From: a virus
Lineage: Duplodnaviria; Heunggongvirae; Uroviricota; Caudoviricetes
Reading direction: 5' to 3' (one strand)
Virus record (IMG/VR): IMGVR_UViG_2698536335_000010
Length of the DNA: 5,290 bases
The notes below the pieces were generated by a model. It was not told where the DNA came from and did no database searches. It saw only the letters and a list, made by a program, of their open reading frames with translations. Positions 177 through 5,286 of the stretch are shown here, in pieces (within the stretch, counting starts at the first letter, position 1; every line of letters starts with the position of its first letter). Made by a program: the position numbers and the translations under genes.

Positions 177-893
177 ATGTCTGCTTTGTATGAACGCTCA
201 CAGCTGACGCAGGTGATGATTTCATCTGCCCCGGCGACTGCTGAAACTATGGATAAGGCGGAATATCTGCGCCTGGACTGCACCATCAAGGAAGTCCAGT
301 TCACCGCCGGTCAGAAACAGGATATTGATGTGACCACGCTCTGCTCCACCGAGCAGGAGAACATCAACGGTCTGGGGGCGTCGTCTGAGATTTCCATGTC
401 GGGTAATTTTTATCTGAATCAGGCCCAGAACGCCCTGCGTGATGCCTATGACAATGACGCGTTGTATGCGTTTAAGGTGCTGTTTCCGTCCGGTAAGGGC
501 TTTAAGTTCCTGGCGGAAGTGCGTCAGCACACCTGGTCATCCGGTACCAACGGCGTGGTGGCAGCAACGTTTTCACTGCGTATGAAAGGCAAACCGGTGT
601 CCTTTGTGGTACCGCTGGCGTTTGTGAAAAATCTGGATAAAACACTTACCGTGAATACAGGTGCGCTGCTGACAATGTCAGTCAGTGCCAACGGGGGAAC
701 GCCGCCGTATAAATACGCCTGGAAGAAGGATGGTCAGCCGGTTGACGGGCAGACGACAGACACCTTCAGTAAGCCAGGTGCGCAGTCCGCTGATGCGGGG
801 AAATATACCTGCGTGGTGACCGATTCGGCAGAGAAAGCACAGAGTGTGACGTCTGTTGAATGCACCGTGACAGTGAGCGCAGCCGCCGGATAA
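177..893 (+). CDS. Major tail (tube) protein with C-terminal Ig-like domain
   Basis: 238-aa ORF with a strong SD, placed directly before the chaperone cassette and tape measure gene, which is the canonical position of the tail tube gene. The C-terminal ~75 aa (...PPYKYAWKKDGQPV...DAGKYTCVVTD...VECTVTV) carry the W...D-x-G-x-Y-x-C signature of an Ig-like fold. Stop TAA 891-893. Confidence 0.8.
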   Translation: MSALYERSQLTQVMISSAPATAETMDKAEYLRLDCTIKEVQFTAGQKQDIDVTTLCSTEQENINGLGASSEISMSGNFYLNQAQNALRDAYDNDALYAFKVLFPSGKGFKFLAEVRQHTWSSGTNGVVAATFSLRMKGKPVSFVVPLAFVKNLDKTLTVNTGALLTMSVSANGGTPPYKYAWKKDGQPVDGQTTDTFSKPGAQSADAGKYTCVVTDSAEKAQSVTSVECTVTVSAAAG

Positions 894-907
894 GGGGATG
901 GGTCATC

Positions 908-1282
908 ATGAAAAAGGATCTGAAAACGCTGGCGCTGGCCAGACTGTCAGGGTTTCGTCATAAAACGGTGAAGGTGCCGGAATGGGGTAATGTCAGCGTG
1001 GTGCTGCGGGAGCCTTCGGCAGAGGCCTGGTATCTGTGGCAGGAAGTGCTCAATGGTGATGGAGAGGATGACGATACCCTGTCGGTGGTGGCGAAAACCC
1101 GCCGTAACCTGGAAGCGGATGTGACGCTGTTCTGCGATGTCCTGTGTGATACGGATCTGCAGCGGGTGTTCGCTCCGGACGACCGTGAGCAGGTGCTGGC
1201 CGTCTATGGTCCGGTACATGCCCGGTTGCTGCGTCAGGCACTGGAACTGATCGCTGATGCAGAGTCGGCCAGAAAAAAGTAG
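908..1282 (+). CDS. Tail assembly chaperone (lambda gpG analogue)
   Basis: ATG 908 (MKKDLKTLALARLSGF...) lies 14 nt after the tail tube stop, with GGGGA (894-898) as a likely SD. The ORF-track start at 860 is inside the preceding gene and lacks an SD. About 124 aa, acidic, ends ...ESARKK with the last codons forming the A_AAA_AAG slippery heptamer before stop TAG 1280-1282. Position between tail tube and tape measure genes is diagnostic. Confidence 0.75.
   Translation: MKKDLKTLALARLSGFRHKTVKVPEWGNVSVVLREPSAEAWYLWQEVLNGDGEDDDTLSVVAKTRRNLEADVTLFCDVLCDTDLQRVFAPDDREQVLAVYGPVHARLLRQALELIADAESARKK
1273..1279 (+). promoter_or_regulatory. Slippery heptamer A_AAA_AAG (copy 1) for a -1 programmed frameshift
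   Basis: X_XXY_YYZ heptamer in the last two sense codons of G. In this copy the -1 frame continues for only 33 codons (VARPEIRFLMRLALRLGRTLSELRHSLSDVIKR) and stops at TGA 1378-1380, because the tandem duplication junction interrupts it. Confidence 0.6.
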
Positions 1283-1376
1283 CCCGCCCGGAAATTCGCT
1301 TTCTGATGCGACTTGCGCTCCGTCTGGGGCGCACCTTATCCGAACTGCGGCACAGCCTGAGTGACGTCATAAAACG

Positions 1377-1691
1377 GTGAAGGTGCCGGAATGGAGAAAT
1401 GTCAGCGTGGTGCTGCGGGAGCCTTCGGCAGAGGCCTGGTATCTGTGGCAGGAAGTGCTCAATGGTGATGGAGAGGATGACGATACCCTGTCGGTGGTGG
1501 CGAAAACCCGCCGTAACCTGGAAGCGGATGTGACGCTGTTCTGCGATGTCCTGTGTGATACTGACCTGCAACGGGTGTTCACTCCGGACGACCGTGAGCA
1601 GGTGCTGGCCGTCTATGGTCCGGTACATGCCCGGTTGCTGCGTCAGGCACTGGAACTGATCGCTGATGCAGAGTCGGCCAGAAAAAAGTAG
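1377..1691 (+). pseudogene. 5'-truncated duplicate of the tail assembly chaperone gene (G'); lacks the first ~21 codons
   Basis: Frame opens after in-frame TGA 1362-1364. No ATG anywhere in this frame, only GTG codons (1377, 1383) without a convincing SD. Encodes ...KVPEWRNVSVVLREP...ESARKK, differing from G at G->R and A->T plus three synonymous changes. Ends with slippery heptamer copy 2 and TAG 1689-1691. Confidence 0.6.
1682..1688 (+). promoter_or_regulatory. Slippery heptamer A_AAA_AAG (copy 2), upstream of the intact T frame
   Basis: Same heptamer as 1273-1279 shifted by 409 nt. Here the -1 frame stays open from 1688 to TGA 1994-1996. Confidence 0.65.
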
Positions 1692-1996
1692 CCCGCCCGG
1701 AAATTCGCTTTCTGATGCGACTTGCGCTCCGTCTGGGGCGCACCTTATCCGAACTGCGGCACAGCCTGAGTGTGAGCGAGGCGATGATGTGGATGGAGTT
1801 CGACAGGGTATCCCCGCTGGGTGATGAGCGCGGGGATATCCGTAATGCACAGATCGTGAAAGCGGTTTTCGGGGCACAGGGGATGAATGTTGCACTGAAG
1901 GACGCCATGCTCTGCTGGGGCGAGGATGAGGATAAGCCGGAGGTGGATCCGTTTGCGGCGCTGGAAGACGCGCTGAGCTTCGCAGCACAGTCATGA
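1688..1996 (+). CDS. T portion of the tail assembly chaperone frameshift product (lambda gpT analogue); -1 frame relative to G'
   Basis: The -1 frame after the heptamer reads VARPEIRFLMRLALRLGRTLSELRHSLSVSEAMMWMEFDRVSPLGDERGDIRNAQIVKAVFGAQG...AAQS (~103 aa). Its first in-frame ATG (1715) has no SD, consistent with expression by frameshift fusion rather than independent initiation. Ends 47 nt before the tape measure start. Confidence 0.7.
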   Translation, partial: VARPEIRFLMRLALRLGRTLSELRHSLSVSEAMMWMEFDRVSPLGDERGDIRNAQIVKAVFGAQGMNVALKDAMLCWGEDEDKPEVDPFAALEDALSFAAQS

Positions 1997-2004
1997 ATGA
2001 TGAG

Positions 2005-2025
2005 AACCGCTGAGGCGGTTTTTTT
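2005..2025 (+). terminator. Terminator/attenuator-like hairpin followed by a T-run, between T and the tape measure gene
   Basis: AACCGC (2005-2010), loop TGAG, GCGGTT (2015-2020), with a run of seven T at 2019-2025. Stem is short, so strength is uncertain. Confidence 0.4.
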
Positions 2026-2043
2026 ACGCCCGGAGAAAGGTGA

Positions 2044-5000
2044 ATGGCGACGTTACGTGAACTGATTATCAAAATTTCGGCAAATTCGCAGTCATTCCAG
2101 TCGGAGATCCAGCGGGCTTCCCGCATGGGCAGTGAATATTACCGGACCCTGCAGAATGGCGGGCGTCAGGCTGCCGCAGTCGCCCGGGAGCAGCGACGCG
2201 CCCTGGCTGAGCTGAACAGCCAGTTGACGGAAATCCGCGCTTCAGCTGCCGGAACGGCGGGGGCATTTGCAGGTGCCTTTGCCACCGGACACCTGATTTC
2301 TCTGGCCGATGAATGGAGTTCCGTGAATGCCCGACTGAAACAGGCGTCGCAGTCATCCGATGAATTTTCGTCATCACAGAAAGTGCTGATGGATATCAGC
2401 CAGCGGACGGGCACGGCATTTTCAGATAATGCGGCCCTGTTTGCCCGCTCGGCAGCCTCAATGCGTGAATATGGTTACAGTGCTGATGATGTGCTGAAGG
2501 TGACGGAGGCCATTTCCACGGGGCTGAAAATCTCCGGTGCCAGTACGGCAGAGGCGGGCTCGGTGATCACCCAGTTCAGCCAGGCGCTGGCACAGGGTGT
2601 GTTACGCGGTGAGGAATTTAATTCGGTCAATGAAAGCGGAGACCGGATCGTACGTGCACTGGCTGCGGGTATGGGCGTGGCCCGTAAAGACCTTAAGGCG
2701 ATGGCGGACGACGGCAAACTGACGGCGGATAAAGTCGTTCCTGCGTTAATCAGCCAGCTGGGGGTATTGCGTGATGAATATGCCGCCATGCCGGAAACGG
2801 TCTCTGACGGGATCACAAAGGTGGAAAACGCCTTTATGGCCTGGGTGGGTGGCGCGAATGAAGCCAGCGGGGTGACAAAAACGCTCTCCGGCGTGCTGAA
2901 CGGTGTTGCCGGTAATATTGATAATGTGGCAACAGCCGCGGGGGCGCTGGTTGCCGTCGGGGTTGCCCGGTACTTTGGCAATATGGCCTCCGGAGCGGTG
3001 TCTGCCACGGCAGGACTTGTGACGGCAGCACGTAATGAAGTGGCACTGGCGGAAGCACAGCTCAGGGGGACGCAGATTGCCACGGCGCGGGCAAGGGCAG
3101 CCGTGTACCGTGCACAGCAGGCTGTGGCGGCAGCCCGCGGGACGGAGATGCAGATTGCTGCAGAAGCCCGTCTGGCGGCCACACAGGAACGCCTGAACAG
3201 AAATATTGCTGCCAGAACCGCAGCCCAGAATGAGCTGAACAGTACAACGGCGGTGGGCTCACGTCTGATGACTGGTGCGTTGGGACTGGTTGGTGGCGTA
3301 CCCGGACTGGTGATGCTGGGGGCAGCAGCATGGTATACGCTGTACCAGAATCAGGAGCAGGCCAGGGAGTCAGCGCGCCAGTATGCACTGACGATAGATG
3401 AAATCGCGCATAAAACGCCGTCAATGTCTTTGCCTGAAGCCTCAGATAATGAAGGACGAACACGGGCGGCGCTGGCAGAGCAGAACCGGCTGATTGATGA
3501 ACAGGCCAGCCGGGTGAAATCCCTGCAGGAAAAAATCGCTGGATATCAGTATGTTCTGGCTAACCCTGGCTGGACAACCGGTGACGGATTCATGATAAAC
3601 CATCTGACATCGGTGAAGACCGTGACGGAAGGGCTTTCTCAGGCAACAGAGCAGCTTGCCGTTGAGCAGTCCCGTCTGGCACAGATGCAGGAAAAAGTGC
3701 AGTCCATTCAGGATGTGCTTGCCGGGCTGGAAGACCGTCGTGTGGCGTTAATTCGTCAGCAGGCGGCAGAGCAGAATAAGGTGTACCAGTCCATGCTGGT
3801 TATGAACGGTCAGCATACGGAATTCAACCGTCTGCTGGGGCTGGGGAATGAACTGCTTCAGCAGCGTCAGGGACTGGTGAATGTACCGTTACGGCTGCCG
3901 CAGGCCACCCTGGATGATAAACAGCAGAGCGCCCTGACAAAAACAGAACGTGAGCTGGCCCTGTCCCGACTGAAGGGGGAGGAAAAAGAGCGTGCCCGGC
4001 TGGGGTATGCGGCGGATGACCTTGGTTTTGTGGGGGATTCGTATCAGGAGGCGAGACAGCGTTATATCAGTAATGCTCTGGAAGCCTGGCGTAATAACGA
4101 GGCGAACAAACCTAAATCCCGGGGTGGAAAATCAGAGACGGAAAAAGCGGAAGACAGTTTTTCCCGGCTACTGAAGCAGCAGAAAGAGCAACTGGCACTG
4201 GCGGGTCAGAATACAGAGCTGGCGAAGCTGAAGTACCAGACTGCGCAGGGCGAACTGAAAACCCTGACGGAGATGCAGAAGCAGGAACTGCTGCGTAACG
4301 CGGCCCTGATTGACCAGCAAAAAATCCGGGAACAGTTGCGATCCCGGGAAGAGACCCTGAAGAATGATAATGTGGCTGCGCGTGCATCAAATGAAGCCGA
4401 ACTGCTGGGATACGGGCAGGGAGAACGAGCCAGGGAACGCATGCGGGAGTTGCAGCAGATCCGCGACAGCTTCCGCCAGAAGGATGCGGACCTTCAGTCT
4501 CAGTATCAGACCGGGGATATCAGTGAGGATTTTTACAGACAGGCACGGGCACAGAACGCGCAGTATCTGAGCGAACGCCTTAAGGACCAGGCAGCCTTTT
4601 ATGCCGAATCGGATGCGCAGCGTGCGGACTGGCAGAAAGGCTTGCAGGAGGGGCTCAGTAACTGGGTGGACAATGCATCCGATTACGCTTCACAGGCAGC
4701 ACAGCTTGCGACGGAGGGTATCTCAGGGATGGTGAATAACATCACGGAGATGCTGAACGGAAACAAAGTGGAATGGCGCAACTGGGCCTCATCCGTACTG
4801 CAGGAAATCTCAAAAGTTCTTATGAATGCCGCGATTGTCAACGGAATTAAGACGGCGGCAAACGGTATGTCCGGTGCGGGAGGATTTATTGGCAGCATTG
4901 GTGACTGGCTGGGCGGTGCGGTGGCCAATGCAAAAGGCGGCGTGTATACCTCGGCAAACCTGAGTGCGTACAGCAACAGCATTGTGGACACGCCCACGTA

Positions 5001-5286
5001 CTTTGCGTTTGCAAAAGGGGCCGGGCTGATGGGGGAAGCCGGACCTGAAGCCATTATGCCCCTGACCCGGGCGGCGGATGGCTCGCTGGGCGTACGCGCG
5101 GTGGGCAGTATGAACGGCAGTGCCGGTCTGGTGTATTCCCCGGTCTACCACATCGCCATTCAGAATGACGGGGCTAACGGACAGATAGGGGCGGAGGCGG
5201 CAGGCAGTCTTGTGCAGCTGATTGACCAGCGGGTGCAGGCGGTGATGCTGTCCATGCGACGTGACGGAGGAATGCTGAGTGGCTGA
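2044..5286 (+). CDS. Tail tape measure protein (lambda gpH-like)
   Basis: 1080-aa ORF directly after the G/T cassette, with GGAG (2032-2035) 8 nt before ATG 2044. Long Ala/Gln/Arg/Glu-rich predicted helical and coiled-coil middle region, and glycine-rich hydrophobic segments (e.g. LMTGALGLVGGVPGLVMLGAAAWYTLY, ~3265..3345). The C-terminal region (...EWRNWASSVLQEI...GGFIGSIGDWLGG...IQNDGANGQIGAEAAG...MRRDGGMLSG) resembles the lambda gpH C-terminus (...NWRSFTRSVL...VGSIGSAIGG...INNDGTNGQIGPAA...MRDGGLFSG) as I recall it. Stop TGA 5284-5286. Confidence 0.9.
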   Translation: MATLRELIIKISANSQSFQSEIQRASRMGSEYYRTLQNGGRQAAAVAREQRRALAELNSQLTEIRASAAGTAGAFAGAFATGHLISLADEWSSVNARLKQASQSSDEFSSSQKVLMDISQRTGTAFSDNAALFARSAASMREYGYSADDVLKVTEAISTGLKISGASTAEAGSVITQFSQALAQGVLRGEEFNSVNESGDRIVRALAAGMGVARKDLKAMADDGKLTADKVVPALISQLGVLRDEYAAMPETVSDGITKVENAFMAWVGGANEASGVTKTLSGVLNGVAGNIDNVATAAGALVAVGVARYFGNMASGAVSATAGLVTAARNEVALAEAQLRGTQIATARARAAVYRAQQAVAAARGTEMQIAAEARLAATQERLNRNIAARTAAQNELNSTTAVGSRLMTGALGLVGGVPGLVMLGAAAWYTLYQNQEQARESARQYALTIDEIAHKTPSMSLPEASDNEGRTRAALAEQNRLIDEQASRVKSLQEKIAGYQYVLANPGWTTGDGFMINHLTSVKTVTEGLSQATEQLAVEQSRLAQMQEKVQSIQDVLAGLEDRRVALIRQQAAEQNKVYQSMLVMNGQHTEFNRLLGLGNELLQQRQGLVNVPLRLPQATLDDKQQSALTKTERELALSRLKGEEKERARLGYAADDLGFVGDSYQEARQRYISNALEAWRNNEANKPKSRGGKSETEKAEDSFSRLLKQQKEQLALAGQNTELAKLKYQTAQGELKTLTEMQKQELLRNAALIDQQKIREQLRSREETLKNDNVAARASNEAELLGYGQGERARERMRELQQIRDSFRQKDADLQSQYQTGDISEDFYRQARAQNAQYLSERLKDQAAFYAESDAQRADWQKGLQEGLSNWVDNASDYASQAAQLATEGISGMVNNITEMLNGNKVEWRNWASSVLQEISKVLMNAAIVNGIKTAANGMSGAGGFIGSIGDWLGGAVANAKGGVYTSANLSAYSNSIVDTPTYFAFAKGAGLMGEAGPEAIMPLTRAADGSLGVRAVGSMNGSAGLVYSPVYHIAIQNDGANGQIGAEAAGSLVQLIDQRVQAVMLSMRRDGGMLSG

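Follow-up and report, generated by a model that had tools for sequence, protein, structure and literature searches.

Introduction

Tail assembly in phages of the lambda type requires the chaperone G together with a low level of GT, a fusion protein made by –1 frameshifting, in which binding of the tape measure protein falls to the G part and binding of the major tail protein to the T part, and the ratio of G to GT has a role in the process (PMC5009743). A second body of work that bears on such genes concerns the recombination of lambdoid prophages in EHEC, where near-identical sister tail genes are found in one chromosome and alleles are shuffled into many mosaics, as is also the case for the genes considered here (Asadulghani et al. 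2009, PMC2669165). The exchanges documented in that work are homologous and keep the gene structure, whereas the junction described below is non-homologous and duplicative. Tandem assembly errors and negative-gap contig overlaps are, for their part, recognised scaffolding problems (PMC5870766, PMC8849508), and the lambdoid prophages of O157 are hard to assemble (PMC4587872).

The stretch of DNA analysed here (5,290 nt, hereafter the window) is tail-module DNA of a lambdoid (EHEC-type) E. coli prophage, with genes for the major tail protein, the G/GT chaperone and the tape measure. It resembles the lambda-type G/GT locus in having a PF06222 G domain, a PF06223 T domain in the –1 frame and a heptamer of the form X_XXY_YYZ before the G stop codon, as well as in the position of these elements between the major tail and tape measure genes. 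Instead of a single pair, however, it carries one and a half G genes and two slippery sites, a layout of G and T that is present in no natural locus examined. The comparisons reported below suggest that the 409-nt tandem repeat behind this layout is probably an artefact of assembly or scaffolding, namely a contig join.

Gene content of the window

All genes described in this section are on the plus strand unless otherwise stated. The window opens with the probable 3' end of a gp17-like tail completion gene (1–110), placed by collinearity with loci L002–L009, to which the window is near-identical and in which 66 nt separate the end of the PF11367 gene from the start of the major tail gene. The latter follows at 177–893, recognised as an ORF with Pfam matches, and encodes a major tail protein that resembles gpV and has an Ig-like domain at its C-terminus; Ig_3, Ig_2 and I-set score above the Pfam cut-offs and Phage_TTP_11 and Phage_tail_2 slightly below them, while the RefSeq label of the gene in the relatives is “major tail subunit”. 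The tail assembly chaperone G is present at full length (908–1282, 124 aa), in the form here called allele A (Gly27, Ala89). Its product covers positions 1–124 of the 124 in the PF06222 profile (E = 1.7e-61), and its DNA is an exact match to the single-copy loci L002–L009 and L012–L017. Directly before the G stop codon TAG (1280–1282) lies the heptamer A_AAA_AAG (1273–1279), the –1 G/GT frameshift site that would be predicted from the literature (PMC5009743).

An identical heptamer recurs at offset 409 (1682–1688), within a second, N-terminally truncated G ORF (G', 1377–1691), which encodes 104 aa from a GTG codon and matches PF06222 profile positions 21–124. G' is without the first 16 G codons and has no obvious ribosome-binding site. 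A –1 shift at 1273–1279 would lead into a truncated T' frame (1279–1380), in which 28 T residues are followed by DVIKR and a stop codon at 1378–1380; the resulting extension of 33 residues in total ends upstream of the PF06223 domain and does not contain it. The full T frame, read by translation at 1688–1996 and in –1 relative to G', is continuous from the second slippery site, and is thus out of reach from full-length G and reachable only from G'. It includes the annotated T ORF (1715–1996, 93 aa), whose PF06223 match (1715–1993, E = 1.2e-18) begins at residue 19, at about position 1769. In the tetranucleotide GTGA (1377–1380) the GTG start of G' overlaps the TGA stop of the T' frame.

The remainder of the window is taken up by the tape measure protein gene (2044–5286, 1080 aa; PF20155, PF06120, PF09718). 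Apart from the G/T pair, all genes of the window are intact and nearly identical to those of the relatives, which agrees with an event that either is very recent or never took place. On the minus strand, an ORF of 358 aa (1050–2126) crosses the repeat junction, so that no locus with a single copy could contain it in that form; a gene caller could report this ORF, which is very likely spurious.

The repeat and its junction

Copy 1 of the repeat (956–1363, plus strand) takes in G codons 17–124 with the slippery site, followed by T-frame codons 1–28, all in the allele A version, and copy 2 (1365–1772, plus strand) comprises the corresponding stretch in the version here called allele B, which has Arg27, Thr89 and three synonymous changes. 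Compared in register at offset 409, the copies are identical at 402 of 408 positions. The mismatches (copy 1/copy 2) fall into a first patch at 986/1395 (G/A) and 988/1397 (T/A) and a second one at 1153/1562 (G/T), 1156/1565 (T/C), 1162/1571 (G/A) and 1172/1581 (G/A). These are exactly the six positions that an earlier reading of this DNA, made from the sequence alone (the sequence-only reading), had named, and there are no others. The codon effects agree with it too: the first patch changes Gly27 to Arg (GGT to AGA) and the second changes Ala89 to Thr, with synonymous changes at Thr82, Asp83 and Gln85. Its description of the differences as clustered rather than evenly spread is borne out by simulation, in which six random sites in 408 nt fell into two patches with a total span of at most 23 nt with P of about 3.6e-4.

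Between the copies there is a single extra base, A1364 (not assigned to a strand), which the sequence-only reading had not mentioned; across 1363-A-1365 the junction reads ...CCTGAGTG-A-CGTCATAAAAC.... This base differs from its equivalents in both flanks (955 and 1773, both T), and neither flank, nor any natural allele, supplies a template for it. The natural bases at the two junction-equivalent sites are T (102) or C (44) at 955 and T (48) or C (95) at 1773, and no allele with A at either site was found in IMG/VR or the GTDB representatives, in a search for which the T or C variants, used as positive control, returned 118 loci. At the ends of the repeat unit (GGTTT|CGTCA versus GAGTG|TGAGC) only 0–1 nt is shared, in addition to the one inserted base. 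Both ends coincide with polymorphic sites; since sites this polymorphic make up 3.5% of the region, both junction-equivalents would be polymorphic by chance with a probability of about 0.001, in a test that was designed after the data had been seen. The junction also forms an 8-nt palindrome, TGACGTCA, at 1362–1369, which contains an AatII site (GACGTC). The idea that it points to a hairpin or a ligation event was set aside, as the palindrome is a coincidence of about 1 in 64 given the flanking bases.

The same junction, for which the sequence-only reading had suggested a survey of related strains, was not recovered elsewhere. The exact junction has no match in 5,426 complete E. coli genomes, where all top matches span 772 nt, the single-copy length, in a check that is blind to a duplication with more than about six extra mismatches. 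Exact scans of the GTDB representatives, IMG/VR and the JGI metagenomes were likewise negative, and both BLAST against phage records and look-ups of the exact tape measure and major tail protein products returned only single-copy loci. Among the 118 loci from IMG/VR a second G is present in 0, and all near-identical loci that were examined have a single copy.

Alleles of G in natural loci

Each of the two copies has a natural counterpart. At all six variable sites copy 1 agrees with its nearest relatives, which are single copy, and the five closest of them (L002, L003, L005, L006 and L009), all with the copy-1 state at 6 of 6 sites, differ from the de-duplicated window at 2 of 4,881 nt. An identical tape measure protein is encoded on 24 contigs that were read, and the ten of these that were shown all have one G and one T. 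Copy 2 matches, at 408 of 408 positions, a single-copy allele carried by at least 60 complete E. coli genomes, O157:H7 EDL933 and PV15-279 among them; the G protein at the allele-B loci that were fetched is WP_001030063.1. The PV15-279 prophage with the copy-2 allele (L011) is strongly diverged from the window outside about 956–1978. In 152 natural loci of good quality, each of the six differing sites is a common polymorphism whose minor allele reaches at least 10%. The six differences are therefore standing differences between two natural alleles of one gene and not the result of drift after duplication, and in this the view of the sequence-only reading, that two alleles are involved, was correct.

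Both alleles can occur in the same cell. The chromosome of strain 2013C-3277 has one prophage with allele A (WP_000710949.1) and, about 175 kb away, another with allele B (WP_001030063.1). DNA near-identical to the window is found in 1,246 of 5,426 complete E. coli genomes, where a genome can have up to 7–8 such loci, and also in many Stx-converting phages. This sharing of one chromosome by sister alleles and the number of loci per genome were counted in favour of a contig join.

The G–T region (window-equivalent 900–2043) is extremely mosaic in the 118 IMG/VR loci, with about 28 haplotypes over ten common SNPs. All four combinations of patches 1 and 2 occur naturally, and strain 2013C-4538 has two copies of a third common allele (GGT + TCAA, WP_000710952.1). 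The haplotype formed by copy 2 and the DNA downstream of it (B at both patches, T at 1773, C at 1870, and a tape measure gene of the allele A lineage) was seen in 0 of about 190 natural loci; the best match to it among complete genomes, with 4 mismatches in 3,926 nt, has the third, hybrid allele (GGT + TCAA). An unseen haplotype of this kind fits a mixed path through several prophage copies, but is weak evidence because natural mosaicism is so high. The C at 1870 was also considered as a marker of a B tract reaching downstream, and was rejected because C occurs with allele A as well (L012–L017).

Origin of the repeat

If the repeat is a contig join, two sequence pieces sharing a 408-nt overlap would have been placed end to end and not merged. 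The first piece would carry allele A of G and end at 1363, and the second would start at the equivalent of 956 with allele B, its source being either a sister prophage or a path mixed from several copies of the prophage, with A1364 as a placeholder or filler base between the two. We infer that the join was made by software. Several observations are consistent with this proposal: both copies are alternative natural single-copy versions, the copy boundaries lie at sites that vary between paralogues (955 and 1773), and one untemplated base separates them. Ends on paralogue SNPs are what is expected of contigs, because the pieces of an assembly graph begin just after such sites or end just before them.

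A direct precedent is provided by the N-joined, allele-bearing duplications of locus L038 (LM997316.1, GCA_000936085.2), which was retrieved by look-up of a 94-aa G' product. This locus contains two staggered tandem duplications of the same head-tail module, one spanning 882–4779 with a period of 1951 and the other 5375–6602 with a period of 609, and a single literal N stands at each junction (2832 and 5991, respectively). The sites at which its copies differ are the same paralogue SNPs, such as the equivalents of 1153, 1156 and 1162, and the second copy of the 609-nt repeat begins directly after the equivalent of polymorphic site 988. It looks clear that these duplications are a scaffolding artefact in a public assembly, in which overlapping contigs were placed in series. 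The window shares with L038 direct tandem copies that differ only at sites of natural variation, one extra position at the junction, ends at variant sites, and a multi-copy prophage module of the kind that breaks short-read assemblies. It differs from L038 in that its junction position is A and not N, and in the length of the overlap (408 nt versus 609 and 1951 nt).

Look-ups of the four possible G' products (104, 102, 94 and 93 aa) returned contig-start fragments, error-rich long-read assemblies and L038. Outside the window, the only occurrences of the 104-aa product are in six draft contigs that open with it (L018–L023). These contigs come from different assemblies and all begin inside G, at positions 1–2 of the contig (window-equivalent 1376), and six contigs starting at one point indicate that short-read assemblies break reproducibly in G. 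That contigs of draft assemblies often start within this gene also speaks for a contig join.

Not every observation fits a contig join equally well. The junction base is A where N would be the analogue of L038, and a gap-filler working from either side should have given T or C; A1364 can be explained neither by an artefact nor by a real rearrangement. The ends of the window are not at branch points either. The relatives continue identically beyond both ends, so the window has been cut from a longer record, and the possibility that it is a whole contig ending at branch points was rejected for this reason. Finally, recombination between O157 prophages is real and frequent (PMC2669165).

If the tandem is instead taken as real, a private illegitimate recombination of co-resident prophages could have put an allele-B G behind allele A and so produced the two slippery sites, an origin that we regard as unlikely. 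Such a recent event between prophages would have joined allele-B DNA illegitimately (T frame at 1363 to G at 956, with one inserted base), followed by a homologous exchange within the identical stretch 1582–1772, and would have left a true tandem G...G' in a prophage that is now probably tail-defective. It could draw on A and B alleles that stand together in single chromosomes (as in 2013C-3277) and on O157 prophages with nearly identical sequences, which have been shown to recombine (PMC2669165), and it would be in keeping with the high mosaicism of the G–T region in nature; moreover, the junction base is a real nucleotide and not N, and k-mer assemblers make no junctions without supporting reads. 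Against this, at least two rare events are needed, one an illegitimate join without microhomology and with an untemplated base, the other a crossover within 190 nt, and the former would have taken place in an organism that is generally held to be without classical end joining. The arrangement is private to the window sequence, the coincidence of both breakpoints with common SNP sites is not something that biology predicts, and the product blocks a GT fusion with a full-length G domain while the other genes of the window are intact.

The repeat might also have arisen as an in-situ tandem duplication of allele A, after which copy 2 was changed by short-tract gene conversion from an allele-B prophage in the same cell, with tract limits between 1365–1395 and 1581–1772. 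The B-type states are indeed confined to the repeat unit, a tract of 187–407 nt would account for them, position 1773 is T but C in every natural “AA TCAA” haplotype seen, and patches 1 and 2 recombine independently in nature. Nevertheless this origin is very improbable, as it shares the lack of microhomology, the untemplated base and the SNP-flush ends, calls for two independent rare events in one private lineage, and has left no A–A duplication intermediate in the complete E. coli genomes, the 10 tape measure contigs or the 118 IMG/VR loci. Drift by point mutation in one copy after an in-situ duplication has in its favour only that the copies differ, and is effectively refuted, since the six differences recreate an existing allele exactly (408 of 408), all lie at common polymorphic sites and are clustered beyond what random sites would give. 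A microhomology-mediated or slipped-strand duplication is not supported either: the unit ends lack the expected end repeat, and copies made by slippage would be identical at birth and then differ at random, while the differences seen here are those of allele B exactly.

The contig join is thus favoured by a private junction, single-copy relatives, the lack of microhomology and an untemplated base. The same features, together with the SNP-flush ends and L038, disfavour unequal or illegitimate recombination or gene conversion, which the sequence-only reading had preferred. That reading had allowed that a chimeric assembly of two prophages fits equally well; the fit is good, but a chimera fits better than recombination does.

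Implications

The case calls for caution with EHEC and STEC draft scaffolds, in which many near-identical prophages are present and which can hold tandem “duplications” with a different allele in each copy. Such allele-bearing repeats mimic recombination or gene conversion, and in drafts of multi-prophage genomes they are not evidence of recombination. The argument that allelic differences speak against an assembly origin, because a simple assembly stutter would give identical copies, does not hold here, as joins of this type produce exactly these differences. Such joins also create false gene calls, in this instance the truncated chaperone G' and the spurious minus-strand ORF, and apparently break an essential frameshift gene pair, G/T.

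Should the tandem be real, it would be a private and probably inactivating rearrangement in one prophage, with a bearing on prophage decay and on G/GT stoichiometry, and even then the junction is no new kind of system. Full-length allele-A G would remain intact, but normal GT could not be made; to obtain full T, ribosomes would have to re-initiate and shift a second time, and the product would always be a G'(del 1-20)-T fusion, while the GTGA overlap would permit the termination-reinitiation coupling. The prophage would probably be tail-defective unless sister prophages help, and the locus would represent a natural experiment on the extent of G that is tolerated and on the G:GT ratio, possibly with rescue in trans by these sister prophages.

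Other features of the module

Between the T stop codon and the tape measure start codon there is a hairpin followed by a U-run (window about 2002–2025). An equivalent hairpin is found in the allele-B lineage (L011, just upstream of 5671), where the stem sequence differs (CCTGC...GCAGG versus CCGC...GCGG) but the predicted fold is the same, which suggests a conserved element that may act like a terminator or attenuator; the hairpin is absent from the output of a simple terminator scan of the window. Two terminator-like hairpins with T-runs (97–113 and 140–154) lie between the gp17-like and major tail genes, and the number of terminator-like hairpins in the window is no greater than in shuffled sequence.

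For almost all of the complete genomes that were fetched (L011–L017, L047, L167), RefSeq lists the portal gene as a “frameshifted” pseudogene, and the gene appears in other assemblies either as one ORF of 859–861 aa or as two of 454 and 405 aa. The call may reflect either a recurrent homopolymer error or a real site of recoding or decay. Finally, in L001 (GCA_964048225.1) the major tail gene of an otherwise near-identical prophage is interrupted at 2496–4831 by an IS66-family element with three ORFs (HTH_Tnp_1, TnpB_IS66 and DDE_Tnp_IS66).
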